Source: Candidatus Poribacteria bacterium (lineage in GTDB: Bacteria; Poribacteria; WGA-4E; WGA-3G). Taken from it: a stretch of DNA of 64,000 nucleotides. Below, in pieces: positions 8,961 to 53,015 of this stretch (positions are counted from its first letter, which is position 1; every line of letters starts with the position of its first letter). The stretch spans positions 25,782-89,781 of the forward strand of contig JAJECK010000015.1 in the NCBI GenBank assembly GCA_022822085.1, read 5' to 3'. A program made the position numbers and the translations under genes. The notes beneath the pieces were generated by a model. The model was given only the letters and a program-made list of their open reading frames with translations, ran no database searches and was not told where the DNA came from.

Positions 8961-9048
8961 TGTCCGTTGGGTTGAGGGACGAAACCCAACATGGAGTGCT
9001 CTATAATGCGTAAAGATGTTGGGTTTCGCCCCTCAACCCAACCTACGA
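8961..9048. repeat. Hairpin-forming REP/MITE-like repeat (family CGTAGGTyGGGTwGAGG...CCTCwACCCrAC)
   Basis: It is an inverted repeat: gggttgagggacgaaacccaacat ... atgttgggtttcgcccctcaaccc. Other members are at 28440-28545, 44050-44140, 52560-52640 and 52650/52930-53015, with a half copy at 14748-14790. Confidence 0.7.
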
Positions 9049-14690: not shown

Positions 14691-14827
14691 AGGACACTCA
14701 AAATCAAAATTCCTTAAGTTGACACCCGCTGAATGCCAAAAAGGCATTCATAGCGTTGATTTACGGGTTTCGTTCCTCAACCCAACGGACAAATTTGTTT
14801 TGTACAAAAACTTACATACCCCCATTT

Positions 14828-16866: not shown

Positions 16867-17712
16867 ATGCAACAAACAAGTACGAAACAGGTCGTCCGTT
16901 GGAATCTGTCTGAAACAACACAGATAGAAGATGAATTGGTTATTGAAGAACCGCTTGAAATTCGGGTAGGACAGCAGAGTCTTATTGTAGTCATGCGGAC
17001 ACCTGGGCATGATTTTGAACTCGCTGCTGGATTTCTATTTACAGAAAACCTAATTCAATCAGAAGACGACATTGAAATCATTGCCTATTGTGAAGATGAC
17101 AACACAGAATCAGATACTGATAATCTATACACTGGCAGGTCATCATTTCAGAACATTTTAAATGTTCATCTAAAGGATAAGTTGGTACTTGAAGAGGCAG
17201 GATGGCAACGAAATTTCCATGCAAATGCAAGCTGCGGACTCTGTGGGAAAATGACGATTGATTCGGTTAAACATCAAGTAGACCCGTTAGAGCTCGGTGG
17301 ACGATTAAATCATAATGTGTTATATCAACTGAATAATCAACTTAGGGCAGCACAAACTGTCTTTGATAAAACAGGTGGATTACACGCAGCAGGACTTTTC
17401 AATGAGATGGGTGAACCCCTAATTATCAGAGAGGATATCGGTAGACACAATGCAGTTGATAAAGTTATTGGACAAGCATTACTATCAGATATGATTCCGT
17501 TAGATAATCACATTCTGATGGTAAGCGGTCGTGCAAGTTTTGAGATAGTTCAGAAAGCACTTTTTGCCCGTATTCCTATTGTTGTCGCAGTATCCGCAGC
17601 TTCTACACTTGCAGTTGATTTAGCTGAAGAAGGAAACATTACTTTAATAGGTTTTATGCGAGATAAACGCATGGCAGTTTACTGCCATCCTAAGCGAATA
17701 CATAACGAATAG
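16867..17712 (+). CDS. fdhD: Formate dehydrogenase accessory sulfurtransferase FdhD
   Basis: Conserved FdhD motifs are present: ASCGLCGK (active-site Cys), TGGLHAAGLF and VSGRASFEIVQKA. Its length of 281 aa is typical. Confidence 0.8.
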   Translation: MQQTSTKQVVRWNLSETTQIEDELVIEEPLEIRVGQQSLIVVMRTPGHDFELAAGFLFTENLIQSEDDIEIIAYCEDDNTESDTDNLYTGRSSFQNILNVHLKDKLVLEEAGWQRNFHANASCGLCGKMTIDSVKHQVDPLELGGRLNHNVLYQLNNQLRAAQTVFDKTGGLHAAGLFNEMGEPLIIREDIGRHNAVDKVIGQALLSDMIPLDNHILMVSGRASFEIVQKALFARIPIVVAVSAASTLAVDLAEEGNITLIGFMRDKRMAVYCHPKRIHNE

Positions 17713-21885: not shown

Positions 21886-23883
21886 ATGAAAACAACAATT
21901 CCCATAATCACATTTATTCTTGTATTAGTAGGACACGCTTCTCTTGTTTTTGCACAAGATAACACACAAGTTGGTCTACCTGATGGTGCTATTGCGCGAC
22001 TTGGTAAAGGCGGGATCAACATAATGCGATTCTCACCAGATGGCAGCAAACTGGCAGTGGGTACGGATGTCGGAGTGTGGCTTTACGATGTGTCAGATGG
22101 AAATGCAACTGCCCTGTTCACAGATAAACCTGGTCAGGTCAACGCACTTGCATTTTCAAGTGATGAAAAAATACTTGCAAGTGGTGGACACGGAAACCCA
22201 TTCATACAACTGTGGAGCTTGGAGAACGGTACTAAACATTCTACACTGTTTTTTAAAAGCGAATTTAGATATGTTGTTGCCTTGGGATTTATTGGTAATA
22301 CACTTATAAGTTATGATAATAGTGGGAGAATTATTTATTGGAATATAAGCAATGGTGATATTTTAACAGAATTGGAAAAGGTGAATCCAAACCAAGCAGT
22401 TACATTTTCACCTACTACTAATCTTATTGCTGTAGCAGATAATTTACACAAAATACATATATATGATACTTCCTTAAGTGATAAGCATATTGTGTTTCAT
22501 GATGATGGATTAGATGAATTAAAAAAGGATATTTTTGCCTTAGCAATTACATCAAATAACAAAAAACTTGTAAGTGGCAGTGAGGACAAAGCAATTAGAA
22601 TTTGGGATATTGAAAAAAGGAAACTAACAACTTCTCTTAATGTCCATAAATCCACAATCACTTCTGTTGCCATATCACCTGATGACAAAATCCTTGCAAG
22701 TGGAGATGCCAGCAAAGAAATCATCCTTTGGGATGTTGATAATCCTAAAGAACTTAGGACATTATTAGGACACAAAAACACCGTTACTGCATTAGCATTC
22801 TCACCTGATGGTGCTGGCAAATATAGTGGTTGTCTTGCAAGTGGTAGCCATGATGGTACGATCCGGTTTTGGAACCCTGACACAGGTGAGAAACTTGTTA
22901 CTTTTGCTACGGGACATGCCAAATGGATTAAAACTATCGCCTTTTCTGAGAACGGGTCAACACTTGTGAGTGCTAACATGACTGGGAATGCAGTTGTTTG
23001 GAGTTTGAATAGCTATCAAGAAATTGGTAGTTTTACAAATGGAGAAAGCGACTATGCGGCTACAGTTGGATTCACCTCTGATGCTAAGCATTTTGTCTGT
23101 CAGGGGTTAAACGGATGGCAGTTTACGTTTAAGCCTTACGGTTTTGGGTATACCTCAAAAGACGGTGAAAATTATGAAGCACTTCCCCTAAGAATGTGGG
23201 ACATAACCACTCGTGAAGAAGTACAAGGTCCTTGGAATGAAAATTCATGTGATATACTTACATTTTCTGCTGATAACAAAATACTTGCTATCTATGGATC
23301 AGATAATGTATTGGGATGGAACATTGATTCTGCAGAAGAATTGTTTGATCTATCAACTGAGGATATATGGTTCATTGAACACATGGTAATATCGTCTGAC
23401 AATAAATACCTTGCTGTGTATGAATCCTCTGAGAAACTGTATATATGGAATTTAGAAAAACCAGAGGATCCGCCTGTCCAAACTAAATCGGATATTGACT
23501 CGTTGGCATTCTCTCCAGATGGTAATAGTATAGCAATATTGAGGAGTGGGAATATTTTCCTTCATGATATAGAGTCGTTCCCAGATGGTGAACCTGAAGA
23601 AATTCTTACAGACCTACACGGTCATGTAGCAAGAATGATCTTTTCTCCCGATAGTAAAATCCTGATATGCGCTGGATTTTCTGGTGTTATATCAAAAATT
23701 AGTATAAAGTTGTTGGATATGGAAACAGGTCAAGAAATTGGAAACCTTTCAGGACACTCGGAACTGATAGAGACACTCGCATTTTCTCATGATGGGAAAA
23801 TACTTGCCAGTGGCAGTTTTGATGGGACAATATTGCTATGGGATTGGGAAAAAATATCTAAAAGACAAGAAATGGTCAAATAG
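21886..23883 (+). CDS. Secreted WD40-repeat beta-propeller protein (paralog 1)
   Basis: It has a signal peptide. Multiple WD40 units have LASGS.D..I..W motifs. The N-terminal QVGLPDGAIARLGKGGIN block is shared with paralogs at 24393 and 44359. Confidence 0.75.
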   Translation: MKTTIPIITFILVLVGHASLVFAQDNTQVGLPDGAIARLGKGGINIMRFSPDGSKLAVGTDVGVWLYDVSDGNATALFTDKPGQVNALAFSSDEKILASGGHGNPFIQLWSLENGTKHSTLFFKSEFRYVVALGFIGNTLISYDNSGRIIYWNISNGDILTELEKVNPNQAVTFSPTTNLIAVADNLHKIHIYDTSLSDKHIVFHDDGLDELKKDIFALAITSNNKKLVSGSEDKAIRIWDIEKRKLTTSLNVHKSTITSVAISPDDKILASGDASKEIILWDVDNPKELRTLLGHKNTVTALAFSPDGAGKYSGCLASGSHDGTIRFWNPDTGEKLVTFATGHAKWIKTIAFSENGSTLVSANMTGNAVVWSLNSYQEIGSFTNGESDYAATVGFTSDAKHFVCQGLNGWQFTFKPYGFGYTSKDGENYEALPLRMWDITTREEVQGPWNENSCDILTFSADNKILAIYGSDNVLGWNIDSAEELFDLSTEDIWFIEHMVISSDNKYLAVYESSEKLYIWNLEKPEDPPVQTKSDIDSLAFSPDGNSIAILRSGNIFLHDIESFPDGEPEEILTDLHGHVARMIFSPDSKILICAGFSGVISKISIKLLDMETGQEIGNLSGHSELIETLAFSHDGKILASGSFDGTILLWDWEKISKRQEMVK

Positions 23884-24215: not shown

Positions 24216-24392
24216 TGTGAAGACTCATCTATTTATTGAAGGCCGACGTTAATAAAAATTTAAAGCGACTATTTCCTTACTTAGTAGGTTCCTGTTGGAT
24301 TTCAGCAAACATCTATTCCAAATAGATTGAACTCCTGCATCATACCATATAAAATATTAGTAACACATAACATTTCAAATAAAATATCAACC

Positions 24393-26402
24393 ATGAAAAC
24401 ATCGTATTCTTTTTTCACCTTTATTCCTGTGTTAGTAGCAATAGTATCATCTGTTTTGGCAAGAGACAACACACAAGTTGGTCTACCTGATGGTGCTATT
24501 GCACGTCTTGGTAAAGGCGGAATCAATATAATGCAATTCTCACCTGATGGCAGCAAACTGGCAGTGGGAACAGATGTTAGTGTATGGCTATACGATGTGC
24601 CTGATGGAAATGCAACTGCTTTGTTCTCAGATAGTCCAGCGCAGGTTAACGCTCTTGCTTTTTCGAATGATGGAAAAATACTTGCAAGCGGAGGATATGG
24701 AAATCCTACCATACAACTGTGGAATTTGGAGGATGATACACTCCATTCTGACTTTATTCTTACAAGTAAGTCCAATTATGTAAATGCCCTTGTTTTTCAA
24801 GGGCAAATGCTCATTAGCTATGATAGAGTGGGTAACGTATCACGTTGGAATACCGATACTGGAATTATTTCTTCAGAATTGGTGAAAATACCAGCATTTC
24901 CAGCAATATTCTCACAAACAGGTAAAATTCTAACGGCTACAGACAGTTTAGGAAGAATTCACATATATGATACAATTACAAAAGAGAAATATTCAATACT
25001 TGCAGATGTTGAACTAAAAAAAGAATTGCAGTGTTTGAGTATAGCACCTAACGGTAAAACAATTGCATGCGGAGGCAGGGATAATATAATTAGATTATTG
25101 GAAATCGATAATGACAATAAGGTCCAATCATTAATTGGCCAAACAGCAGGAATAATTTCCATTGCTTTCTCCACTGATGGCAAAATTCTTGCAAGTGGTG
25201 ATTCAAATAAAGAAATTACAATCTGGGATGCTGAGAATACCAAGAAACTTAGAAAAATAAGTGGACACACAGGCACTGTAAATGCATTAGCATTTTCACC
25301 TGATGGGGCAGGTAAATATAGCGGTTGTCTTGCCAGTGGTAGCCTTGATGGAACAATCCGATTTTGGAATCCTAACACAGGTGAGGAACTTGTCAGCTTT
25401 GCTACAGGACATACGAAATGGATTAAAACTATCGCCTTTTCTGAGAACGGGTCAACACTTGTGAGTGCTAACATGACTGGAAATGTAGATGTGTGGAGTT
25501 TAAATGGTTATCAAGAAATAGCTACATTCGCGGATGGTGAATGTGATTATGCAGCTTCAGTTGCATTTACCAATGATGCTAAGTATTTTGTCTGCCAAGG
25601 GCTTAACGGCTATACGGTTACATTTGACTCCTACGGTTTTGGATATAAAACAAGAAGAAGTGATAATCTTGAAATACTACCTGTGCAAATGTGGGACATA
25701 ACCACTGGTGAAGAACATTACGGTCCTTGGAATAAGACATCAGGTAATTTATTGGCATTTTCACACGACAATAAAAATCTTGCCATCTATGGTTCTAAAA
25801 TATTGTTGGTTTGGAACACAGAAACTAAAGATGAATTGTTCAATACTGACACTGAGAAAATGTTTCGCATTGATGAGATGGTTTTCTCATCTGACAATAA
25901 AATGATTGCTTTATATGAAACATCAAGGAATGCTAAAATTTGGGATTTAGATAAACCAGATGAGCCATATATTCAAACCAAACATACAACAGATGCATTA
26001 GGGTTCTCTCCATGTGGAAGGTTTTTCGCTACATTAAAAGTAGGTGGTTTTTCATATCCTAAACCGGGAAAAATATTTATTCATATTTTAGATAGGTTTC
26101 CTGATGGCGAACCAATAGAAATTAGTGCCAATATCCACGGTTTTGAAAATAGATTAATCTTTTCTCCTGATAGCAAAACAATTGTTTGGGCAGGGACGTT
26201 AAATATGAGATCAAATGTTCGCATAAAATTATGGGATGTGGAAACTGGTGAAGAAATAAGAACATTATCTGGGCACACTGAACCTATAGAATCGCTTGCA
26301 TTTTCTCATGATGGGAAAATACTTGCCAGTGGCAGTTTTGATGGGACAATATTGCTATGGGATTGGGAAAAAATATCTAAAAGACAAGAAATGGTAAAAT
26401 AG
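24393..26402 (+). CDS. Secreted WD40-repeat beta-propeller protein (paralog 2, tandem duplicate)
   Basis: Architecture matches 21886..23883. The last ~130 nt, including the stop and ~25 nt of 3' flank, are nearly identical to paralog 1. A 50-nt internal block is identical (25430-25490 vs 22930-22990). The ATG at 24393 with a signal peptide is preferred over the tracker start at 24327. Confidence 0.75.
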   Translation: MKTSYSFFTFIPVLVAIVSSVLARDNTQVGLPDGAIARLGKGGINIMQFSPDGSKLAVGTDVSVWLYDVPDGNATALFSDSPAQVNALAFSNDGKILASGGYGNPTIQLWNLEDDTLHSDFILTSKSNYVNALVFQGQMLISYDRVGNVSRWNTDTGIISSELVKIPAFPAIFSQTGKILTATDSLGRIHIYDTITKEKYSILADVELKKELQCLSIAPNGKTIACGGRDNIIRLLEIDNDNKVQSLIGQTAGIISIAFSTDGKILASGDSNKEITIWDAENTKKLRKISGHTGTVNALAFSPDGAGKYSGCLASGSLDGTIRFWNPNTGEELVSFATGHTKWIKTIAFSENGSTLVSANMTGNVDVWSLNGYQEIATFADGECDYAASVAFTNDAKYFVCQGLNGYTVTFDSYGFGYKTRRSDNLEILPVQMWDITTGEEHYGPWNKTSGNLLAFSHDNKNLAIYGSKILLVWNTETKDELFNTDTEKMFRIDEMVFSSDNKMIALYETSRNAKIWDLDKPDEPYIQTKHTTDALGFSPCGRFFATLKVGGFSYPKPGKIFIHILDRFPDGEPIEISANIHGFENRLIFSPDSKTIVWAGTLNMRSNVRIKLWDVETGEEIRTLSGHTEPIESLAFSHDGKILASGSFDGTILLWDWEKISKRQEMVK

Positions 26403-26655: not shown

Positions 26656-27768
26656 TTATACCTCTATTTTTTGAAGGTTCACTTGGTCAAGCGAGTTATT
26701 TCCTAATTCAAGTCCACTTGCTGATGTAATATGGTTTGCATATTTAGACATAGAACTTAATCCCATCTCCTCGCGTTTCTGATTGACAGTTTGAAGGATT
26801 AATACATCAAGGATAACCGGATCAGCACTTACAAACATTCCGCCAAATTGCCATGCACTTTCTGCGTGGTATGTCGGTCCGTGGTCAAACGAAGCCAACA
26901 ACCCATCAACGATATTCAGAACGACCTTATCCTTTATCACCTTATTTTCATAAATCTCGGCGATAGCAGGATTGCAGTAGAGCGGTCTGCCGTGGAATCT
27001 CCTCGTATTATCCACACTACCAAAAGCCATGTTCTTCAAACATCCGCTAACACCAGACATATCGTGATGCTTCAAGACAGGGACATTAATAACAACATCC
27101 ACCATTTCAGTAATGATACGAGAATAAAGGGAGCGAGTGCTTTCGTTTTCACGTCTTGTGATACTGTCCTTTTCGGTTTCATAGAAAACTTTATCGTCAT
27201 AACCTATGTCTTGTAAATTGGAAGCTAATGTTCGGACATCTCCTTCCTCGGTTCTAATAGGGAATCCTGCACTCAATAGGTGGTCTTCAAACCGGTCCCA
27301 AATGATAATTTGCTTTCTGAGAACACCTGCACTAAATAAAGCATCTACAATTTTATTTACAATGACAGAATGCGTGCTTAACTTTGGGCCAGCAAGTGGA
27401 TTGACTTTTATGCCTACTATATGATCAGGCAAAACAAAGTCTCTCCATGCTTCTTTTGCTGTTTCACGACCGGTAAGTTTAACCATAGCCTGATCCAGCA
27501 TATACGCTACAGCCTCTTCATTAAGTCTATCATCTTCCCACACCTGTTTCCCAAGAACTTCTACGACAGGAGTTAAATTCTCTTTCTGTGTTGGAGGTGT
27601 GAGAACCCGTCCCCCGATTTGTGCAATAGCGGGAAGTGTGGATAGTGCAGCACCACTAACAACCCCAATCGTCGTGAGGAATTCACGACGATTGAACTTG
27701 TTTCGTTGGGACACTGTCTCTTCACAGTCTGACAAGATGTTCGCTATAACCTTATCGTGAGGCTTCAT
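26656..27768 (-). CDS. Tat-signal periplasmic protein, DUF362-like
   Basis: It has a twin-arginine signal (NRREFLTTIGVVSGAALSTLPAIAQ). It is 370 aa. Its ATG overlaps the TAA of the upstream selenoprotein gene by 1 nt (TAATG), implying translational coupling. The family assignment is from memory of overall features and is low confidence. Confidence 0.45.
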   Translation of the reverse strand: MKPHDKVIANILSDCEETVSQRNKFNRREFLTTIGVVSGAALSTLPAIAQIGGRVLTPPTQKENLTPVVEVLGKQVWEDDRLNEEAVAYMLDQAMVKLTGRETAKEAWRDFVLPDHIVGIKVNPLAGPKLSTHSVIVNKIVDALFSAGVLRKQIIIWDRFEDHLLSAGFPIRTEEGDVRTLASNLQDIGYDDKVFYETEKDSITRRENESTRSLYSRIITEMVDVVINVPVLKHHDMSGVSGCLKNMAFGSVDNTRRFHGRPLYCNPAIAEIYENKVIKDKVVLNIVDGLLASFDHGPTYHAESAWQFGGMFVSADPVILDVLILQTVNQKREEMGLSSMSKYANHITSASGLELGNNSLDQVNLQKIEV

Positions 27769-28370
27769 TAGAGTTTACCTAATTCTGATAGGATGGTTGC
27801 AGTAGGTACACGTGAAGCAAAAGAATCTAACGACTTCCATGCAACTGTCCCATCCTGAGCAATAATATACGCTGATGGTCTTGCTATTGTTTCGTCAGTT
27901 TGATCAAGGACATTATATGCGTTAATTACATCTTTGTTAGTGTCTGCAAGTACGGGATACGTGAGTCCTTCTTTCTCAGTAGTGTTCTTTGTAAGACTTA
28001 CATTTTCAGAACTTATTGCGAATAGTTCTGTCCCAGTGTCTTTTATGTTTTCGTAATTTTGTTGCAACTCAACGAGTTGCGAGGTGCAAAGTCCTCAGCC
28101 GCCTGTTCGGTAGAAAACGATTACTACATTTTTTCCATTATCAAGATGTTCGGATAGTGTGTGTAAATTCTCAAACCCATCAGACAGTTCAAAATCTGGA
28201 GCATGTGTGCCAATCACTAAACCCTCACCTAATTCAGTTTCGGATTCGGTTATAGGCGTTGTCACTGTTTCTGTATCTTTAGTTTCATTTATCGGATCAT
28301 CTGATGTCCCACAACCAAATACGCCTATAAGTAACAATGCTAATGTAAGGAAAGTTAATTTTTTATTCAT
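27768..28370 (-). CDS. Selenoprotein: TlpA/ResA-like thiol:disulfide oxidoreductase lipoprotein (thioredoxin fold, redoxin family) with a UxxC active site. The Sec codon is the TGA at 28095-28097.
   Basis: Two tracker ORFs (28095..28451 and 27768..28067) share a frame and are separated only by TGA. Read-through gives ...VVIVFYRTGG-U-GLCTSQLVELQQNYENIK... U aligns with the first Cys of the WCxPC/CxxC motif of TlpA/ResA/Prx-like proteins. Downstream similarity to ResA (..YPVLADTNKDVINAYNV) supports this. A lipoprotein signal (LLLIGVFGCG) starts at the ATG at 28370, with an RBS (aaaggaa). A hairpin sits 14 nt 3' of the UGA. Confidence 0.7.
28064..28080 (-). promoter_or_regulatory. Putative bacterial SECIS stem-loop for selenoprotein 1
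   Basis: The mRNA reads GCAACUC-GUU-GAGUUGC, a 7-bp perfect stem with a G/U loop. It starts 14 nt after the UGA and lies within the codons for SQLVELQ. Confidence 0.6.
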
Positions 28371-28439
28371 ATCATGTATTCCTTTCAAGGATTTTAGTAA
28401 TCCTTGCCTTAATATTTTAACGTGAGTTTGATAATAAAA

Positions 28440-28545
28440 TCCAATAACCACGTAGGTTGGGTTGAGGAACGAAACCCAACATGGAGTGATCTAAAGTGAG
28501 TAAAGATGTTGGGTTCCGTTCCTCAACCCAACGGACACAGACTTA
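28440..28545. repeat. Hairpin-forming REP/MITE-like repeat (same family as 8961-9048) between selenoprotein genes 1 and 2
   Basis: The inverted repeat is acgtaggttgggttgaggaacgaaacccaacat...atgttgggttccgttcctcaacccaacggac. Confidence 0.7.
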
Positions 28546-28575
28546 TGTTTAGAATTATCAAACTCACATTAGGAG

Positions 28576-29706
28576 TTACCAAAGCTTACTCAACTCCTTC
28601 ATAATTCGTGTTGTTGGTACTCGTTTGTCAAATGTATCTATTGATTTCCATACGACTGTGCCATCAGATTCAAGAAGAAATGTAGACGGATTGAGTGCAC
28701 CTGTATCTACTGGAACTTCTACATTGAAAGGTTTGACTGCATCAAGGTTTGTATCAGAAAGGACAGGAAATTCAAGATTTTCTCTATTGACTGTTATTCT
28801 TGTTGCTGGTACATCTTGTATACTAATAGCAAATATTTCAGCATTATCTGCTTTTATTCTATCATAATTATCTTGCAACTCACCGAGTTGCGTTACGCAT
28901 GCAGCTCAGGCACCACCTATGTAAAAGACGACGATAGCATTTTTCCCTTCATCAAGTGTATCGTAAAGTGAATGTAGTTTTCCATTCCCATCAGGCAACT
29001 CAAATTCTGGTGCTTTAGAAAATATTGGTAAACCTTCCCCTGGTTCCTCGGGTTCAACTTCTCTATCACCGATCCCAATTGGTGATAACTTTACATTTAA
29101 TTTCTCAGTCTCATTTGCATCTAAAGGCTTCACTGAGAGATCGTAGACTTCATAATCGGCAGCTTCTATTGTCAAGGTAAACTTCTGTTGAGTCGGAAGA
29201 TTATCAAAATTGAAGATACCCTCATCGGAGGTAATAGTCTCGTCCTGTTTTCCATCTTGATCAGTAAGTTGTACGCGTATCTCAGGTAGTCGTATTCCAG
29301 TTCTGTTGTTCCGAACAAGTCCTATAATATGTGAAACAGGATATGACAATTCTTCAAGTGTGATAGTATCCAACGTAACTGTTTCACCAGCAATAACATT
29401 CACGTTGAATTCCATCTCCTGAAATCCTCGTGCTGAAATACGTAACGTGTAATTTCCTGCTTCAATTTTTCTGAGTGTGAAACCTCCAGTACTTTCCATC
29501 TGCGCGACAACTTTACCGTCTTTTAATAAACGGACCTTGATTGTCCCATCAACGTTTGGTTGTACTTTACCGTGTATAACACCAGTTGTGGTCTCTATTT
29601 CCGGTATTTCACTGACAGGATTTTCTACTGTCTCACATCCAAAGGCAGTTAGGAGTAGTAAGGGAATTGTGAGGAATGTAAATAATCGTCTCATTTTTTT
29701 CTCCAA
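28576..29706 (-). CDS. Selenoprotein: CarboxypepD_reg-like domain + TlpA/ResA-like thioredoxin-fold lipoprotein with a UxxC site. The Sec codon is the TGA at 28906-28908.
   Basis: Tracker ORFs 28906..29706 and 28576..28878 are in frame across a single TGA. The read-through is ...NAIVVFYIGGA-U-AACVTQLGELQDNYDRIK... It has a lipoprotein signal (LLLLTAFGC). The N-terminal ~150 aa resemble a carboxypeptidase-regulatory-like beta-sandwich (GVIHGKV...G.YTLRISARGF). A hairpin sits 14 nt after the UGA. Confidence 0.7.
28875..28891 (-). promoter_or_regulatory. Putative bacterial SECIS stem-loop for selenoprotein 2
   Basis: The mRNA reads GCAACUC-GGU-GAGUUGC, starting 14 nt after the UGA and lying within the TQLGELQ codons. 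Confidence 0.6.
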
Positions 29707-30107
29707 TTGTATATTAATTATTAATATAGTAACGTCTTATGCTAAATAATTATTTGTAAAACATTGTTATACATAAAGAGGAGGATTTGACCGTATATCT
29801 TTGCTTTGGATGATCTTTAGTCCCATCCGGACGATATGTTTATATGTTAAATCCATTTTATGCGAATACAATACAAACAAATAGTTAACTGACACAAGTC
29901 GTTATAGTAAATTTATTTTATCGAGTTACATTTGACATAGTTCAATTTAAGTGATTTATAGCAGTTTTTAGAATTGATTGGACATTAGGGAATTGTCGGA
30001 GGGAACTCCGATTCCCAACTATCATTGAGTTAAGTCTCGATTCGGAGACCGCTCCTACAGAATATGAAAAGTCATGAAAATAAAACACAACATCAATACA
30101 TCTCACA

Positions 30108-31214
30108 TTATAACTTCCCTAACTGGTCAATAATATCTTCATTTGGAACACGATGCCCTAAACGTTCATCAAGGAATGTCCATGCCACTATACCATTCCG
30201 ATTTAGTATAAAAGTGGCAGGACGTGCGATATGTTTGTTGTTTGGATCAACGACATTATAATCGGCGATCATCTTCTTTTCACTATCAGCGAGTACAGTG
30301 AACTTTAGTCCTTCTTTATCAACTGTTTGCTTTGATGAAGCCACGGTATCAGAACTAATTGCTATGAGTTCTGCACCTTTAGCTTTGATTTTTGCGTAGT
30401 CATCTTGCAACTCTCCGAGTTGCGAAACACAGAAAGGTCACCACCCTCCACGATAAAAGACTATGACTAACTTGGTGTCTCCGATAAATTCATCAAGCGA
30501 ACGTACTTGGTTGTTGCTGTCTGACAGTTCAAACCCTGGAGCTTGACTGCAGTCGATTAGTCCATTACCCGGATCTAAATCCACATTTTCACGAATCATT
30601 GATGTAAGTTTTACATCTATTTCAAAAGTGTTGCCAGCTTCAATTGCATCCACTGTTTGATCATACATCTCGTAACAAGTATGGGTGATTGATAGTGTGA
30701 AAGCATTATCAGCAGGTAGATTTTCAAAAATAAAGGTTCCGTCATCAGAAGTCAAGGTTTCATATTCTTGACCCGATGTTTCTGTAAGTTTAATTAGGAT
30801 ATTGGATAACGGATTGCCTGTTTCTTCATCAGTTAATTGACCATTCAAATGTGCAATAGGTTCTTCTAATGGTGAGAGTGTTACTTTATCAAGCACATAA
30901 GTTTCACCTGCAACAATATCGACTTTAAGTTCTGTTGTTTCATAACCTTTTGCGGATATTTCTACAGTATATTCGCCCTTTTCTATCTCACCCAGATCAT
31001 AATTTCCTACAGAATCAGCTTGTGCGATGAGTTGACCATCTTTCAGAAGACGAACATGAATTGTAACTCCTTCGATCTCTTCAACCTGTACCTGAAGTTT
31101 ACCTGATTCTAACTGAACTTCGTCAATTTTATCAATCGGATCTTCAGTTGATCCACAATTCAGTCCAACCAATATTAACAAAGCCAATGCAATGAGTGCC
31201 ATTGTCTGTTTCAT
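30108..31214 (-). CDS. Selenoprotein: CarboxypepD_reg-like domain + TlpA/ResA-like thioredoxin-fold lipoprotein with a W-U-P-F-C site. The Sec codon is the TGA at 30438-30440.
   Basis: Tracker ORFs 30438..31271 and 30108..30410 are in frame across a single TGA. The read-through is ...KLVIVFYRGGW-U-PFCVSQLGELQDDYAKIK... WUPFC mirrors the thioredoxin WCGPC motif. The probable start is the ATG at 31214 (MKQTMALIALALLILVGLNC lipoprotein signal) with an RBS (aaggaaa). A hairpin sits 14 nt after the UGA. Confidence 0.7.
30407..30423 (-). promoter_or_regulatory. Putative bacterial SECIS stem-loop for selenoprotein 3
   Basis: The mRNA reads GCAACUC-GGA-GAGUUGC, starting 14 nt after the UGA. The flanking uuuc/aaga can extend the stem with one mismatch. 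Confidence 0.6.
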
Positions 31215-31288
31215 GATTATATGTTTCCTTAATCTTATCTTTACTTCACTGTTTTTCAATACCTTCGCCAATAATTAACGGACTTCCA

Positions 31289-31362
31289 GATTGTGCATAT
31301 TGTAGCACATTCATCCTTGATTGTGCATATTATAGCACATTCATCCTTGATTGTGCATATAA
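31289..31362. repeat. Tandem direct repeat, 30-bp unit x ~2.5 (gattgtgcatattgtagcacattcatcctt)
   Basis: Exact tandem copies lie immediately upstream of the selenoprotein-3 start. The unit shares the cttccagattgtgca motif with the composite repeat element at 24040. Confidence 0.7.
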
Positions 31363-31625
31363 CCTTTATTGTCAGTCTGCTGAAAAGTCATTTCTATTGT
31401 CAAATCAGGATCTATGACAATTAAAAACGCTTCAGCAAAAATCTCAAACTATTAATAATCATGTAATCCTACAATATCACAAATCAATGGAAGAACAACA
31501 CTGTATTCTCATTATGCTGAAGCATTAAAAAATGGCGAAGGTATTGATTTTTATAAAGAGATACTATTTTGTAAATTGATATTATTTTGTAGGTAGGTGA
31601 GACAAATCACCTACAACAATGAAAC

Positions 31626-32432
31626 CTAATGGGACGCACGTTGTTTAATAGTTCCCCAAGTCGTGGTCAATTTATCTTGTGCTTCAACAGAAGTTATATT
31701 CACAAGACCGTCAGACATAATAGAATTTATATCGTCTTCAGTCAAGGCGACGTTATAGAGTGCAACTTCATCAATGATCCCATTTGTATATCGGTCAAAA
31801 TGTCTTCCGATATGAAACACACCTTCAGCCGTTCCGTATCCATCATCGGTATTGAAATCGACTGCAGCTTCCATTTTGCCATCAATCCAAATAGATGCTT
31901 TACCGGTATCGGTATTCGCTACACCAGCAACAAAATGCCAATTGTCATCACCAATTTCTGTTGTGCTCTGAGGTCTGAAACTGGTATTACCACTATCGCG
32001 TAAGAAGAAAGTTACCTTGTTATCGCCACCACCGTTCCAAATCATGTACCACGGTGTTGCTTGAGATTTATCTTCATAATTCTTTCCTGCAAGTGAACCA
32101 CCGACCTTCGTTCCTTTGAAATGTGCAGTGAGAGAAAAGGATGTTCCAGACTCAAATGCTACGGTATCGGAATGTGCAACTTCAACCCAATCGTCTGTTC
32201 CATCAAATTGAAGTGCTTTCCCAAATTTTCCATCAACCCAGGTTGCCCCGTGTATTTGACCTTCATTATCTTGACTTGATGAATCACCTGCTACTGTGCC
32301 TGCACCTTCATCAAAAAGCCATAATCCAGTGATATTCTCATATCCATATTCAGCAAAACTTGGATATGCTATTAGTAAAGCGAGACCTATAAACAAAGTT
32401 AACGTAAATCCAAAATATTTCATATTGTCCAT
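31626..32432 (-). CDS. Secreted LamG/concanavalin-A-like lectin-fold protein carrying the conserved C-terminal tail
   Basis: It has a signal peptide (FTLTLFIGLALLIAYPSFA). It is a paralog of 32441..33238 (shared WLFDEGAG..DSS..N.G...GA.WVDG.FGKAL.F.GTDDWVEV.HSDTV.F..GTSFS...H.KG). It ends ...VEAQDKLTTTWGTIKQRASH. Confidence 0.6.
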   Translation of the reverse strand: MDNMKYFGFTLTLFIGLALLIAYPSFAEYGYENITGLWLFDEGAGTVAGDSSSQDNEGQIHGATWVDGKFGKALQFDGTDDWVEVAHSDTVAFESGTSFSLTAHFKGTKVGGSLAGKNYEDKSQATPWYMIWNGGGDNKVTFFLRDSGNTSFRPQSTTEIGDDNWHFVAGVANTDTGKASIWIDGKMEAAVDFNTDDGYGTAEGVFHIGRHFDRYTNGIIDEVALYNVALTEDDINSIMSDGLVNITSVEAQDKLTTTWGTIKQRASH

Positions 32433-32440
32433 ATCCTTTC

Positions 32441-33238
32441 TTATTGTAATTGTCGTTTAATCTTACCCCATGTTGTTGTAAGTTTACCAACAGCAGCGAC
32501 TGCTGCTGCTTCTTCCAAACCATTATTCATAATCGTATCCATTTCATCTTCACTCAAGGCAACATTAAATAGTCCAACATCATCAATGATTCCTTTAGTA
32601 TAACGGTCAAAGTGCCTTGCGATGTGAAAGACACTATCATTCGTACCGTAACCTTCAGAAACATCTAATGTGTCTTCCTGATTCTTTTTACCATCTATCC
32701 ACAAGGATATTTTTTTTGCATCTGCATCTGCAACTGCAGCGATAAAATGCCATTTTTCATCTGAGACAGGCACGGTACTATCTATTTTTGAATTCTTATC
32801 TGCTGAGGTGCGAAGATAGAAAGAAACATTTTGGTCTTGACCACCGTTCCAAAGCAGATACCAAGGTTTGACCTGTGATGTATCTTCATAGCCTTTGCCA
32901 ACAAGTGAACCTCCTACTGCTGAACCTTTGTAATGAAGTGTAATAGAAAAGGAAGTTCCCTTCTTAAACCCAACAGTATCTGAATGTTGAACTTCTACCC
33001 ACCCATCAGTACCATTAAATTCAAGTGCTTTGCCAAATTGACCGTCTACCCATTTTGCTCCGCCTATAACTTTTCCATCATTGCCATTACCAGATGAATC
33101 ATTTGCTTTATCACCGTTCCCTTCGTTAAAAAGCCACATCCCCATAATGTTGTCTGCATTTAAGGCAGCTTGTGACGGAAGGATAAGGAAACAGAATGTA
33201 ATTAGACAGAGTACAAAAATAAATAATATTCTCATCAA
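32441..33238 (-). CDS. Secreted LamG/concanavalin-A-like lectin-fold protein carrying the conserved C-terminal tail
   Basis: It has a signal peptide. It is paralogous to the downstream gene. It ends ...AAVGKLTTTWGKIKRQLQ. Confidence 0.6.
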   Translation of the reverse strand: MMRILFIFVLCLITFCFLILPSQAALNADNIMGMWLFNEGNGDKANDSSGNGNDGKVIGGAKWVDGQFGKALEFNGTDGWVEVQHSDTVGFKKGTSFSITLHYKGSAVGGSLVGKGYEDTSQVKPWYLLWNGGQDQNVSFYLRTSADKNSKIDSTVPVSDEKWHFIAAVADADAKKISLWIDGKKNQEDTLDVSEGYGTNDSVFHIARHFDRYTKGIIDDVGLFNVALSEDEMDTIMNNGLEEAAAVAAVGKLTTTWGKIKRQLQ

Positions 33239-37514: not shown

Positions 37515-38168
37515 TTGAAGACCTTCATGAACATAAGAGGACTGTACTACATCACACATATTGACAACTTGTCATCTATTTTAAAGAGAGGAATCTTATG
37601 TCATGAAAGAATTGATGCTCTACAAATTCAGAACACGCCAATCTATGATATTGATCTTGTTAATAGACGGAAGGAAAGAAACACTCCGGATGGCAAGAAT
37701 CTCTGGCATTATGTAAACCTATTTTTTCAACCTCGTAACTCAATGCTCTATGGAGTTATAAAGTCAAATGGCATGAAGAACATCGCGGTGTTGGGAATAT
37801 CCAGAAATGTGTTGGACAGACAAGGAATCTTCATAACCAATGGAATTGCATGGAAAAGTTGTACTCAAATTTATCGAAAATCAATGGGAATGCAGTTCCT
37901 TGAGAAACAACAGGAAATACTCCAAAATGACGATTGGATTGACTGGCTCCATTCATCTAAAGTTAAAAATCAACTAATGGCTGAATGTTTGGTTCCTAAA
38001 CAAGTTGAGACAGAGTATATAAGAAAATTTATTGTTGCAGATAAGAGTGTAGCAGATTCAATAAAATGTAACCTTTCCAATGATAATATTCAGAAATTAG
38101 TTGTTGCAGCTAATAACGAAAACAACATATTCACTCCATTCAGCAAAAAAACTGTGATTTCAGCCTAA
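37515..38168 (+). CDS. DarT-like DNA ADP-ribosyltransferase (DUF4433)
   Basis: The N-terminus LYYITHIDNLSSILKRGIL matches the DarT/DUF4433 signature. A conserved ...MAECLVP... block (putative catalytic Glu) is present. It is 217 aa. Confidence 0.6.
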   Translation: MKTFMNIRGLYYITHIDNLSSILKRGILCHERIDALQIQNTPIYDIDLVNRRKERNTPDGKNLWHYVNLFFQPRNSMLYGVIKSNGMKNIAVLGISRNVLDRQGIFITNGIAWKSCTQIYRKSMGMQFLEKQQEILQNDDWIDWLHSSKVKNQLMAECLVPKQVETEYIRKFIVADKSVADSIKCNLSNDNIQKLVVAANNENNIFTPFSKKTVISA

Positions 38169-38239: not shown

Positions 38240-39451
38240 ATGAAGGGTCGTACAATGCAGAATAATAGTCTTTACTATATTACTCATTTAGACAACTTAC
38301 AATCAATTTTTGCAAACGGGATTCTATCCTTTGATAGATTGAAGTCAGAAAATAGAAATGTCATCTCAATATTTAAGGGAAAGACTAAGGCAAAGGATGA
38401 TATTAGTCTTAGATCCTCAATCGTTCCACAATTTTGCAAAGACAATTTATTGAGTTACGTCAGTCTCTATTTTCAACCACGTAACCCATTGTTGTATCGC
38501 GCTATTCTGGAAATTGGTCTCGAAAATCTTGTCATTCTTGAAGTTGCAAACACAGTCCTTAGTAACCCTGGAGTAGTCATTACCGATGGCAAATCCACTG
38601 AAGAGCTAACACAGTTCTATCCATGTCCTCAGGGTTTAAAAAGAATTAAGCAGTTGGACAAAACAATTCGGAGCGATTGGTGGAAAAAATGTGACGGATC
38701 AAAACGACAAATCATGGCAGAATGTTTAGTACCGGAGTCTGTCATTCCTGAGTACATTCGTTCAATTATCATGGCAGACGAAATAGAGACTTTACTTGGA
38801 AAGATAATGTTAGATAATATTAAATTACCCATTGTTTGTCAACCTGAGAAATTCTTCCAACCAAAACGGAGGATTGCTGTAAGTGAAAATATTACACTCA
38901 TTGATGGTGGTGATATGTTTTTCTCTGAGATGCAGACATTTACAATAACAGTCAACCTTCAAGGAATAATGGGTAAAGGTTTGGCTTTACGTGCTAGAGA
39001 ACAATTTTCTGACGTTTATGTTGAATATGAGAAAGCATGTAGAACTAAGAAAATCACTGCTGATCGTCCTTACATTTACAAGCGCGAGGAATCCGTTCTC
39101 CATGAGTTAGTGGATATAGAACCATACCGTAACAAGATTAGGACTCCCTACAGATGGTTTCTGCTTTTTGCAACAAAACGACATTGGAAAACAAACTCAC
39201 GTATTGAGGATATTGAGAATGGTTTGAAATGGGTACAGGAATACGCCAAAACGGAAGGTATGCGATCACTTGCCATGCCTGCTCTAGGTTGTGCTTTAGG
39301 AGGCTTAAATTGGAAAGATGTCGCACCTTTGATGTGCAAATATCTTGATGTAATTGGAATACCTATTGAGATCTATCTTCCCCGAGAATACCCAATTGAA
39401 TCTAGATATCTATCAGAATCACATTTATTTGCACATCAGGCAGTTAGTTAG
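38240..39451 (+). CDS. Fusion protein: N-terminal DarT-like (DUF4433) domain + C-terminal macrodomain (DarG-like ADP-ribose glycohydrolase)
   Basis: The N-terminus LYYITHLDNLQSIFANGIL and ...IMAECLVPESVIPEYI parallel the upstream gene. The C-terminal half has macrodomain motifs: NLQGIMGKGLALRAREQF, ATKRHWKTNSRIEDIENGL and AMPALGCALGGLNWKDVAPLM. Confidence 0.6.
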   Translation: MKGRTMQNNSLYYITHLDNLQSIFANGILSFDRLKSENRNVISIFKGKTKAKDDISLRSSIVPQFCKDNLLSYVSLYFQPRNPLLYRAILEIGLENLVILEVANTVLSNPGVVITDGKSTEELTQFYPCPQGLKRIKQLDKTIRSDWWKKCDGSKRQIMAECLVPESVIPEYIRSIIMADEIETLLGKIMLDNIKLPIVCQPEKFFQPKRRIAVSENITLIDGGDMFFSEMQTFTITVNLQGIMGKGLALRAREQFSDVYVEYEKACRTKKITADRPYIYKREESVLHELVDIEPYRNKIRTPYRWFLLFATKRHWKTNSRIEDIENGLKWVQEYAKTEGMRSLAMPALGCALGGLNWKDVAPLMCKYLDVIGIPIEIYLPREYPIESRYLSESHLFAHQAVS

Positions 39452-44358: not shown

Positions 44359-46431
44359 TTAAGGGTTTAACTTCTGTTTGATAGATTCCCAATCCCACAG
44401 GATGACAGTACCATCTCTACTTGCAGTGGCTAAAGTCTTTCTATCTGGAAAGAACGCTAAATCGTTGACCAAATCGGTATGTCCTTTGAGGATATTCGAG
44501 ACGTTGAATGTACGTGTTTCCCGCACTTGTATTGTCCCGTTAGATCCACCACTAACAATGCTTGTATCATCAGGAGAAAACCGTAGACATCTACAGACTT
44601 CATTAGTACGACCTGAAGATATTCGCTCACCTGATGACACATCCCAGATATAAATTTCATCATAACTCATACTTGCCAATGTTTTTCCACTTGGTGAGAA
44701 TACTAACCTACGTATTGCATTTTTCTGTCCAGTTAGTGTAAGCCGTTTAGTCCCCTTTTCTATGTCCCAAAGGTGAATTATCTTGTCTTTGCCACCACTC
44801 GCTAATAGGTCTCCATTCGGTGATAGTGCCAATGTACTAAGAGAACCTGTAGAGCCATTAAGAGTGTAGACCGGTGCTATCGTCTTGACATTAGTCAACA
44901 GTCTTTTCAATATAGGTTTTGTCTGGATCGGAATGTTCCATATATGAAACTTACCGATTTGTTCATTCTGAGTTGCAGTTGCTAATCTATTCCCTACATT
45001 AGAGAATACAAAAGTTGGTATCTTATATGGGGGAACTTCAATCCCAGTTATAGTCAATCTCTTCCTTTTTTCGGAGGTGTCCCACAGTTCATAAGTATTT
45101 TCAGGACTCCAATCCTTTATTACAACATACTTTGCATCTGATGAAATTGCAAGAGGGGTTTCCCAGTTGAAGAAAGTTCCTGTCAAGTGATGGCCGACAT
45201 TGGTGTCCCAATTCTGTATTTGATAATTCATAAAATGCCCAGTTATTAGAGCATTATTCTCCTCCGAAATGGCTAAATTAACGACTTCTGATGCATGTCC
45301 CGAACAAGCAAGTTGCTGTCGACCAGTGTTAGCATCCCAAACCCGAATTGTACCATCTTTGCTGCCTGTAAGAAGTCTATTTCCATCAGGTGAATATGTT
45401 ATGTCTGAGATTGTGTATTTATGTCGAGTGAGTCTTTGCTTGGGAAAGAAACGTCTTATTTTTCCAAGCCAACCTTGTTGTTTTGCTGTGGCATCCCATA
45501 GATATATACTCCCATCGTGCCCACCACTAACAAGGGTTTTGCCATTCGGTGAAAATGCAAGCGCGGAAAAACTTATAGGTGCTTTGAACGATACCTGTGA
45601 TTCCTGTGTATCCATATTCCATAACTTGATAGTCCGAAAGTTATCACCACTTGCAAGTGTCTTACTATCTGGCGAAAAAGCTAAGGATTGAATAGACCGT
45701 TCATGTCCCGATAGTGTGAACAGAAGCTTAGAATTAGCCGTGTCCCATAAATGGATTGGAGTTTTTCTCTTTGAGCGGTGTTTTGACACTGCTAAGGCAA
45801 GAAAGCGTCCATCAGGTGAAAGTCCAATTACTGGACTATGTGTATCCTCAAAATCGAAATTTATACTCTTTATTTCGATCGGTTTTGGTGCTGACCGTTC
45901 ATTAAAACGCAAATGGACTATTTTATTCTGCGCCCTGCTTACACCTACCATCTCAGGACGATCTGCAGATAAGAGAACTGATGAATACTTGCTTTTTTCA
46001 ATAACAATAATGGTTTGGAGTTCACCAGTATCTGCATCCCATTGTACTATCTTTCCTCCTGAAACTGCTCCAATCAGTGTACTGCCATCCACTGAAAACA
46101 TTACTCCCTTAACATTCTGTCTATCTCCTTTTAATAGTGAAATCTCTGTTCCAGTCTTTGCATCATACATCCAGATGCCAATCGTGGTTGCCACTGCAAA
46201 CCAATTACCGTCGGGTGAAAATTTGATGTCATTTATACTGCCTTTACCTAAACGTGCTTTTGCACCTTCAGGTAACTGCCATCGGGAGTAGTTTACATTT
46301 GATGTAGGGAATGTCAATTCTATTGTATCACGATTCATCAACCTTCTGACGAATAATATCGAAGCAAGAACTGCAAGTATAGATATAAGAATCACTATGA
46401 GTATAGCAAAAGAGCGACGAGATAATTTCAT
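44359..46431 (-). CDS. Secreted WD40-repeat beta-propeller protein (paralog 3)
   Basis: It has an N-terminal TM/signal. WQLPEGAKARLGKGSINDIKFSPDGNWFAVATTIGIWMYDAKTG parallels the N-termini of paralogs 1 and 2. Many WD40 units are present (LASGS.D.TI.LWD). Confidence 0.7.
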   Translation of the reverse strand: MKLSRRSFAILIVILISILAVLASILFVRRLMNRDTIELTFPTSNVNYSRWQLPEGAKARLGKGSINDIKFSPDGNWFAVATTIGIWMYDAKTGTEISLLKGDRQNVKGVMFSVDGSTLIGAVSGGKIVQWDADTGELQTIIVIEKSKYSSVLLSADRPEMVGVSRAQNKIVHLRFNERSAPKPIEIKSINFDFEDTHSPVIGLSPDGRFLALAVSKHRSKRKTPIHLWDTANSKLLFTLSGHERSIQSLAFSPDSKTLASGDNFRTIKLWNMDTQESQVSFKAPISFSALAFSPNGKTLVSGGHDGSIYLWDATAKQQGWLGKIRRFFPKQRLTRHKYTISDITYSPDGNRLLTGSKDGTIRVWDANTGRQQLACSGHASEVVNLAISEENNALITGHFMNYQIQNWDTNVGHHLTGTFFNWETPLAISSDAKYVVIKDWSPENTYELWDTSEKRKRLTITGIEVPPYKIPTFVFSNVGNRLATATQNEQIGKFHIWNIPIQTKPILKRLLTNVKTIAPVYTLNGSTGSLSTLALSPNGDLLASGGKDKIIHLWDIEKGTKRLTLTGQKNAIRRLVFSPSGKTLASMSYDEIYIWDVSSGERISSGRTNEVCRCLRFSPDDTSIVSGGSNGTIQVRETRTFNVSNILKGHTDLVNDLAFFPDRKTLATASRDGTVILWDWESIKQKLNP

Positions 46432-52559: not shown

Positions 52560-53015
52560 TATCTTGTCCGTTGAGTTCGTGAACCCCAACACATATCGAT
52601 AAATGTTGGGTTTCGTTCCTCAACCTAACCTACGATACTAATATAACGAAAGGGGCGTAGGTCGGGTAGAGCGTGAGCGAAACCTATAAGCGTCAATTTA
52701 GTGAGTAAAGTGCATCTGGAACACCTGTCGCCCCTCTGGGCTTTGGCCACACACAGGCATCATCTGCTATACACCTGTCGCCTCTCTGGGGCTATCTTCA
52801 ATCATATATCAGCACCAGCGGTGCGAAAGGTATATAGAATTCACAGGCCAAAAGAAACCAAGCACCAGCGGTGCGAAAGGGTGTCCGATAAAATTGGATT
52901 TCCAACTATAAAACAAGAGACAGGCTCTTAAATTGATGCCTATGGGTAGAGCGTGAGCGAAACCTGACATTCACGGCACGTGTCGGGTTTCGCTCACGCT
53001 CTACCCGACCTACGA
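52560..53015. repeat. MITE-like composite bounded by REP/MITE hairpin-repeat arms, with internal direct repeats
   Basis: There is a complete hairpin at 52560-52640 and arms cgtaggtcgggtagagcgtgagcgaaacct (52650) ... aggtttcgctcacgctctacccgacctacg (53015). The interior holds direct repeats cacctgtcgccyctctggg x2 and agcaccagcggtgcgaaagg x2. The tracker ORF 52701..52931 is probably non-coding. Confidence 0.55.

Follow-up and report, generated by a model that had tools for sequence, protein, structure and literature searches.

Conserved hairpins downstream of in-frame UGA codons as very probable selenocysteine insertion signals in three tandem redoxin genes of Poribacteria

Three redoxin genes with an in-frame UGA

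The stretch of DNA considered here, 64,000 nucleotides of contig JAJECK010000015.1 from a Candidatus Poribacteria bacterium (assembly GCA_022822085.1, positions 25,782 to 89,781 of the forward strand; 'the window' below), carries on its minus strand three tandem open reading frames (ORFs) that are each interrupted by one TGA and that can be read as predicted selenocysteine (Sec) redoxin genes, here called A, B and C. Gene A (27768..28370, 200 codons) starts at ATG 28370 and has its in-frame UGA, the predicted Sec codon, at 28095..28097, where it aligns with the Cys of homologues that carry Cys instead (Cys forms). Gene B (28576..29694, 372 codons, ATG at 29694) lies in an ORF that opens with TTG at 29706, and gene C (30108..31214, 368 codons, ATG at 31214) in one that opens with TTG at 31271; their UGA codons, located in the translations, are at 28906..28908 and 30438..30440, respectively. 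Around the UGA the products read ...VFYRTGG-(UGA)-GLCTSQLVELQ... for gene A, ...VFYIGGA-(UGA)-AACVTQLGELQ... for gene B and ...VFYRGGW-(UGA)-PFCVSQLGELQ... for gene C, and the UGA takes in each case the place of the first Cys in a CxxC motif, which becomes UxxC (U-GL-C, U-AA-C and U-PF-C, within GG-U-GLC, GA-U-AAC and GW-U-PFC). All three products contain the AhpC/TSA domain PF00578 (Pfam E-values 2.5e-28, 3.8e-23 and 5.7e-30 for A, B and C), and their N-termini look lipoprotein-like, each being a hydrophobic signal that ends in G/N-C and resembles a lipobox (…VFGC in gene A); in genes B and C this signal is accompanied by two N-terminal CarboxypepD_reg domains each. A scan of the window for ORF pairs joined by a TGA returned A, B and C as the sole convincing read-through candidates.

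On the mRNA strand, each of these UGA codons is followed by 14 nucleotides (nt) and then by a hairpin of 17 nt, with the same spacing in all three genes: GCAACUC-GUU-GAGUUGC in gene A (28064..28080, minus strand, over the codons S-Q-L-V-E-L-Q), GCAACUC-GGU-GAGUUGC in gene B (28875..28891, minus strand) and GCAACUC-GGA-GAGUUGC in gene C (30407..30423, minus strand), the latter two located by motif search and folding, and the reading-frame context being (x)-Q-L-(V/G)-E-L-Q throughout. An earlier note on this DNA had described exactly this arrangement, with a perfect stem of 7 base pairs (bp) and the loops GUU, GGU and GGA, and its positions, spacing and pairing hold in 3 of 3 genes when read off the mRNA strand. 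The distance from UGA to loop is 14 + 7 = 21 nt and the loop G is thus the 22nd nt past the UGA, in agreement with that note's G-containing loop about 20 nt downstream. The motif GCAACTC-NNN-GAGTTGC has exactly three matches in the window and none in 100 dinucleotide-preserving shuffles. Moreover, the redoxin domains of A, B and C are just 48% identical pairwise and the three hairpins differ in the loop alone, so that the stem has indeed been conserved despite paralogue divergence, as the note had also put it. RNAfold, the folding check that it had proposed, places the 7-bp hairpin in the minimum free energy (MFE) structure of all three 63-nt mRNA contexts (-14.1, -12.7 and -12.2 kcal/mol), and the isolated 17-mers fold at -7.7 kcal/mol each.

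With the comparative evidence described below, it seems to us very probable that these hairpins are bacterial Sec insertion sequences (bSECIS elements) of three tandem, exported, lipoprotein-type Prx-like AhpC/TSA UxxC thiol-disulfide oxidoreductases, to which SelB would bind, in which Sec rather than another residue would be placed at the UGA, and whose export and redox role are predicted from their domains and signals. With the UGA in the ribosomal A site, a hairpin starting 14 nt further on would stand just outside the mRNA entry channel, where SelB, loaded with GTP and Sec-tRNASec, could bind the G-(G/U)-N apical loop of the hairpin through its C-terminal winged-helix domain; SelB docked in this way would deliver selenocysteine at the UGA in competition with RF2. 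Because the hairpin lies inside the coding sequence, the codons CAA-CUC-GNN-GAG-UUG-C would be frozen, and it is probable that the hairpin contributes to holding the peptide Q-L-(G/V)-E-L-Q constant as well.

Conservation within Poribacteria

A genome scan of other Poribacteria assemblies (at least 22 genomes) found orthologues at 25 loci, with 47-83% identity, and the 38 copies at these loci together with the three of the window make up the 41 Poribacteria copies compared here. In 41 of 41 the TGA stands at the same codon and is followed by CA(A/G)CUC-NNN-GAGUUG, so that the comparison of orthologues suggested in the earlier note found stem complementarity kept in the window and in at least 22 other genomes. 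With codons counted from the UGA, Gln+6 in the stem is CAA in 39 copies and CAG in two, the latter giving a G.U pair, and the other three stem codons are the same in all 41 copies: CUC at Leu+7, GAG at Glu+9 and UUG at Leu+10. Outside the stem, the conserved Leu+24 uses five different codons, Glu+23 is GAA in 36 of 38 copies, and the conserved Val, Arg, Gly, Thr and Ala positions of the alignment approach synonymous saturation; the comparison of synonymous sites that had likewise been proposed thus returned frozen stem codons amid flanking sites that are nearly saturated. Under the codon usage of the window (CUC and UUG make up 12% and 18% of Leu codons, GAG 26% of Glu codons), the joint probability of the four stem codons is ~0.004 per copy. 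Variation is found in the loop codon (GGU 16, GUU 8, GGA 6, GGC 6, GUG 4 and AGU 1), where a G stands at position 1 in 40 of the 41 copies and at position 2 in the remaining one (AGU). The stem has 6-7 bp in every copy and its outermost G-C pair in 33 of 41; copies without the outer pair reach just -4.8 kcal/mol when folded alone. No conserved lower stem involving the UGA was found in this set.

A perfect palindrome that is invariant within a phylum might also be a site at the DNA level, such that the 6-3-6 arrangement would serve as operator for a regulator that binds as a dimer, or as a target of recombination or methylation, and would lie within coding sequence by coincidence. We give this next to no credence, since all 41 occurrences in ~210 kb of Poribacteria DNA are in these genes, in the same frame and 14 nt past a UGA; since distant members show compensation that is compatible with RNA, including G.U pairs, which would be meaningless in DNA; and since the palindrome is missing from most Cys forms.

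Covariation among metagenomic relatives

Metagenomes were scanned with the pattern TGA-N6-TGY-N6-CAR-CTN-NNN-GAR-CTR-CAR, which fixes Leu+10 as CUR and leaves the choice at Gln+6 free. It gave at least 120 matches (L081-L200), all of them redoxin genes of the type U-x-x-C-x-x-Q-L-[GV]-E-L-Q; their median GC content is 63%, and the samples of origin include soil, peat and marine ones. Among the matches listed, Gln+6 is CAG in 119 of 120, together with CUG at Leu+10, and the corresponding binomial probability for at most one CAA is ~1e-15, uncorrected for shared ancestry. By comparison, the control position Gln+11 in the same 120 listed matches is CAG in 47, with a same-ORF background of 73% CAG. 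Glu+9 is GAG in 120 of the 120 matches listed, though the pattern permitted GAA (background GAG, 64%), and Leu+7 is CUC in 93 of them (background 32%). In 22 listed matches Leu+7 is CUG; here the loop codon is GUC without exception (22/22), so that the loop-closing pair is lost and the stem, now of 6 bp, carries a GGUCG loop. Over 148 distinct sequences, the pair formed by columns 21 and 31 is GC in 108, AU in 37, GU in two and unpaired in one, and the observed covariation score was reached by none of 500 shuffles; 95% of cells are paired, versus 13-48% when the partner is slid. The earlier note had also asserted that changes in the protein had been accepted only if they preserved pairing, which could not be derived from three copies and which the 41 Poribacteria copies and at least 120 further ones now bear out.

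Two further features of these relatives were recorded. At Gln+11, just 3' of the stem, CAA is used in 73 of the 120 matches listed versus a background of 27% CAA, i.e. there is a preference for A 2 nt 3' of the stem. Many soil members, L093, L119, L152 and L082 among them, carry a C-terminal extension of ~200 amino acids (aa) with ...YQACDDKVCF..., which, judged by eye, resembles the N-terminal domain of DsbD; Cys-form relatives often adjoin a DsbD gene.

Sec forms and Cys forms

Is it the peptide or the RNA that is conserved downstream of the UGA? When a metagenomic member, with C substituted for U, was used to query a protein database, 80 full-length Cys forms with 43-52% identity were obtained, all 80 of which read ...W-C-P-[YF]-C-x-x-Q-L... 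at the active site, with the Cys aligned to the UGA position. After Q-L, they continue with KELR, KEMR, AGMR, GELR and so on, and QL[GV]ELQ occurs in 0 of 80. For seven Cys forms with the identical QLGEL peptide the DNA could be compared: Leu+7 is CUG in four, CUC in two and UUG in one; Glu+9 is GAG in six and GAA in one; Leu+10 is CUG, CUC and UUG in two each and CUU in one; and the full hairpin is present in two. When only sequences gathered without a condition on codons are counted, the full stem is found in 44 of 45 Sec forms versus these 2 of 7 Cys forms (Fisher p = 4.7e-5).

Departures from the common hairpin among the Sec forms point the same way. Two of them (L211 and L212) have CAGCUC-GGN-GAGCUG. 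A third (L201, peptide QLGKLK) has CAG-CUU-GGG-AAG-CUG, in which the replacement of Glu by Lys (GAG to AAG) is matched by a synonymous change of CUC to CUU, so that the loop-closing C-G pair becomes U-A; the outer pair is U-A as well. A fourth (L202, QLGTLK) retains a stem of 5 bp, the loop being 7 nt long. A further relative (L203, 301-819) has TCA (Ser) instead of TGA together with an uncompensated CUC...AAG; it may have arisen from a Sec form by a change to Ser, or the difference may be a sequencing variant. Finally, the Sec forms of Acidobacteriaceae (L026-L028, YRGHW-U-PFCLRQLAEYR) share with the window genes the domain, the UGA position and a downstream hairpin, with G at loop position 2, and differ in the sequence and register of that hairpin (UCCGCC-AGUU-GGCGGA, 10 nt past the UGA as against 14 nt) and in the downstream peptide (LRQLAEYR). 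Since another peptide here goes with another hairpin, the structure follows the UGA rather than the peptide.

These comparisons bear on the possibility that the hairpin serves another role in the RNA, where it might make ribosomes pause for the sake of folding or export, stabilize the mRNA or stimulate near-cognate read-through, and that the UGA is read without SelB. The sequence of the Poribacteria hairpin is conserved without covariation, the hairpin also occurs in those two Cys forms, and the pipelines of the Joint Genome Institute (JGI) already render such UGA codons as Trp, all of which would suit this alternative. We nevertheless hold it to be very unlikely, because the UGA coincides exactly with the redox-active Cys and Trp at this position would destroy catalytic activity; because the geometry and the G-containing loop match the bSECIS model; because the stem has decayed in most of the Cys forms that encode the identical peptide; and because a Sec form with a different peptide bears a different hairpin at the same place.

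Relation to known SECIS elements and selenoprotein families

The bSECIS consensus of Zhang and Gladyshev (bSECISearch), in the form given in PMC13188914, has a loop of 3-9 nt with G among its first two positions, usually as G[G/U], a stem of 4-16 bp, a UGA-to-loop distance of 16-37 nt and an MFE of -7.5 kcal/mol or lower. The window hairpins, with their 7-bp stem, 3-nt loop of the form G-[G/U]-N, distance of 21 nt and -7.7 kcal/mol, fall within every range of that model, and the fit to bacterial SECIS elements that the earlier note had suggested is supported. They stand out from the model by a loop at the small end of the range and in a conservation of primary sequence within one family that is unusually strict.

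The SECIS of Escherichia coli fdhF has a bulged U in its upper stem, and its apical loop belongs to the GGUC type. When the U of UGA is numbered 1, the loop G is at position 25 in the window and at G23 in fdhF, which we take to be a similar distance, and the GGUCG loop of the metagenomic CAGCUG-GUC-GAGCUG includes the GGUC of fdhF. In the account of Liu et al. 1998, the minimal fdhF element reportedly begins 11 nt after the UGA, as compared with 14 nt for the window hairpins. Judged by this analogy, the window hairpin would work like the fdhF SECIS, yet it is no member of that type. The minimal E. coli SECIS is the 17-nt upper stem-loop that binds SelB (PMC11431864), and the window hairpin has the same length as this minimal element of the fdhF/fdnG SECIS.

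The proteins find a place more readily. The Prx-like 1 or Prx-like thiol:disulfide oxidoreductase family (pfam00578, UxxC) is an established family of predicted selenoproteins (PMC1794560, PMC2398784) and is, according to PMC1794560, PMC2398784 and PMC13188914, abundant in ocean metagenomes. With this family (Kryukov and Gladyshev 2004) the window genes share PF00578, UxxC and homologues of the CxxC Cys form; they differ from it in the two CarboxypepD_reg domains of B and C, in their lipoprotein-type signals and in their tandem arrangement. From their domains and motifs they are best described as unannotated members of Prx-like 1 with a standard bacterial SECIS, i.e. as new members of a known family. 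Our literature search yielded neither a description of such selenoproteins in Poribacteria nor a paper that contains the peptide QLVELQ or QLGELQ.

Several observations weigh against the identification of the hairpins as bSECIS elements. The folding energy is unremarkable: compared with shuffled sequences, z is -3.1 for the first 63-nt context, -1.0 and -0.8 for the other two, so that two of the three do no better than their own shuffles, and since only the first clearly beats them, significance rests on conservation and not on energy. Rfam SECIS models gave no match in 27700-31300 at gathering scores, nor at E-values up to 10, and the Rfam matches obtained were chance ones of microRNA-like type on a long intergenic palindrome. 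Within Poribacteria, neither RNAalifold nor a count of pairs over the 41 copies detected a compensatory pair change, the support there being invariance; with Q, L, E and L fixed, however, only three options preserve pairing (CAG.UUG, CAG-CUG and CUU.G), so that the missing covariation is in part expected. In the metagenomic set, the covarying A-U to G-C pair is partly confounded with genomic GC content, for which Gln+11 of the same sequences provides the internal control, and the scan pattern itself fixed one side of this main covarying pair. The retention of the hairpin in 2 of 7 Cys forms means that the hairpin by itself is no proof of Sec decoding. Relative to the fdhF type, the stem is perfect and has no bulged U, the loop is a triloop and the sequence is unrelated. 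Finally, no selA, selB, selD or tRNA-Sec was found in the 64-kb window: Pfam identified none of SelA, SelB or SelD among 40 of the 46 long ORFs besides the Sec genes (those up to ~54.9 kb), and ARAGORN detected no tRNA of any type.

Decoding of UGA and current annotation

TGA terminates 6 of the window's 46 long ORFs, by which a genome-wide reassignment of UGA (code 4 or 25) is ruled out. An alternative is that the hairpin is a SECIS-type signal and that the residue inserted with the help of SelB is cysteine, carried by a tRNA-ReC (SelC*)-like tRNA, so that the enzymes would be of the CxxC type. Such tRNA-ReC reads UGA as Cys given a downstream SECIS and occurs in several phyla rich in metagenome-assembled genomes; it is, on the other hand, uncommon (~2.3%) in Sec-type genomes outside those with UXXU-type hydrogenases (PMC13582414). 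The data presented here fit Sec and Cys at the UGA alike, and the window, devoid of tRNA genes, offers no such tRNA. The UGA has been retained in 41 of 41 copies although one change, to UGC or UGU, would give Cys, which argues for a benefit that Cys cannot provide, and we therefore regard insertion of Cys as a distinctly improbable variant of the scheme. Two observations touch on Sec in this phylum and genome: Poribacteria are among the phyla listed with Sec-type [NiFeSe] hydrogenases (PMC13582414), and the window contains a gene of the FdhD/NarQ family (formate dehydrogenase sulfurtransferase accessory protein; 16867-17712, plus strand), which suggests that a formate dehydrogenase, in many cases a selenoprotein too, may be encoded outside the window.

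All close homologues of the redoxins in a database of 5.8 billion proteins are fragments of either 99 aa or ~258 aa. The 99-aa fragment begins at the TTG of the Leu codon within the hairpin and the ~258-aa fragment stops at ...FYRGGW, and the UUG of the hairpin (Leu+10; 28065-28067, 28876-28878 and 30408-30410) is thus used by gene callers as a false start. The JGI pipelines, for their part, read through the UGA of related genes with Trp (...YRGHW-W-PYC...). NCBIfam models for selenoproteins and redoxins (SelL-related, TUGYCR, PrxU and WAxxUGC) score at best 45 bits with the window proteins against a cut-off of 120, and the metagenomic relatives likewise remain below the cut-off of every model. 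As close homologues are present solely as fragments, the genes are mis-annotated throughout. The same two fragments, of 99 aa and ~258 aa, are what one would expect in public protein databases if the genes were pseudogenes or their TGA codons assembly errors, with the hairpin a chance palindrome from codon choice. This explanation is effectively refuted, its probability being minimal: all 41 copies, which come from independent assemblies, share the position of the TGA with one another and with more than 120 metagenomic contigs, both halves are open and conserved as protein with abundant synonymous change, and the four stem codons would arise by chance with the low probability per copy (p = 0.004) given above.

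A wider class of sequence-conserved SECIS

What, then, would the hairpin be beyond the three genes of the window? On balance, we are inclined to think that G-CA(A/G)-CUC-GNN-GAG-(U/C)UG-C, encoding QL(G/V)EL(Q/K), is a single, sequence-conserved SECIS class of a very large, multi-phylum Prx-like clade, in which the RNA element and not the function of the protein fixes six codons of the helix that follows the active site, and in which gene and SECIS travel together between phyla. The reading covers Poribacteria together with the soil, peat and marine metagenomes in which the at least 120 matches were found, and the relaxation of the Cys forms to QLKELR, QLKEMR or QLAGMR is part of the same picture.

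If this were true, the whole clade would be mis-annotated, as split ORFs or with Trp at the UGA, and no NCBIfam model would be there to rescue it. Already with the bSECIS explanation of the three window genes, six hypothetical or redoxin-fragment ORFs turn into three full-length predicted selenoproteins, and the same annotation error extends to the orthologues in every genome examined of the Poribacteria, a largely sponge-associated phylum, and to more than 120 metagenomic relatives. The clade can be searched for with the signature TGA-N6-TGY-N6-CAR-CTN-NNN-GAG-YTG, whose CTR subset gave at least 120 matches, all of them such redoxins. The element is furthermore an example of overlapping code, in which an RNA signal freezes the choice of codons, and probably that of amino acids, inside a protein helix, and the compensated variants that occur in nature, with A-U turned into G-C or C-G into U-A, can serve as reporter designs as they stand. 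Our understanding of Sec decoding itself is left unchanged.

Genomic neighbourhood and other features of the window

Directly downstream of gene A lies a DUF362 gene with a twin-arginine-like N-terminus (26656..27768, minus strand), the ATG of which and the stop of gene A overlap (TAATG). A DUF362 gene directly follows the Sec-redoxin gene or genes in 25 of 25 Poribacteria loci, and this adjacency makes it probable that both belong to the same operon. The order of LamG-like protein(s), one to three Sec-redoxin genes and DUF362 is likewise found at 25 of 25 loci and spans 26656-33238 (minus strand) in the window; in most of the 25 loci a WD40 gene on the opposite strand comes after DUF362. The DUF362 proteins have a signal like that of twin-arginine translocation and are 68-88% identical over the 24 loci at which the gene is complete. 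WD40 beta-propeller proteins of 665-691 aa are encoded three times in the window (21886-23883 and 24327-26402 on the plus strand, 44359-46431 on the minus strand).

The intergenic regions contain a dispersed repeat, GTTGGGTTGAGGAACGAAACCCAAC, with six copies versus none expected: 8966-8990(+) and 9018-9042(-), 14762-14786(-), 28456-28482(+) and 28506-28532(-), and 52605-52629(-). Two pairs of copies make long inverted repeats, and one such inverted repeat lies between Sec genes A and B, with 27-nt arms that are 96% complementary and a spacer of 23 nt. The repeat looks like a repetitive extragenic palindromic (REP) or miniature inverted-repeat transposable element (MITE), and would also be the source of the chance microRNA-like matches in Rfam. 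Elsewhere in the window, two adjacent genes with a DarT domain (single-stranded DNA thymidine ADP-ribosyltransferase) are located at 37515-38168 and 38240-39451 on the plus strand, the second of them fused to a Macro domain; the pair may constitute an unusual toxin-antitoxin arrangement of the DarT/DarG-like kind.

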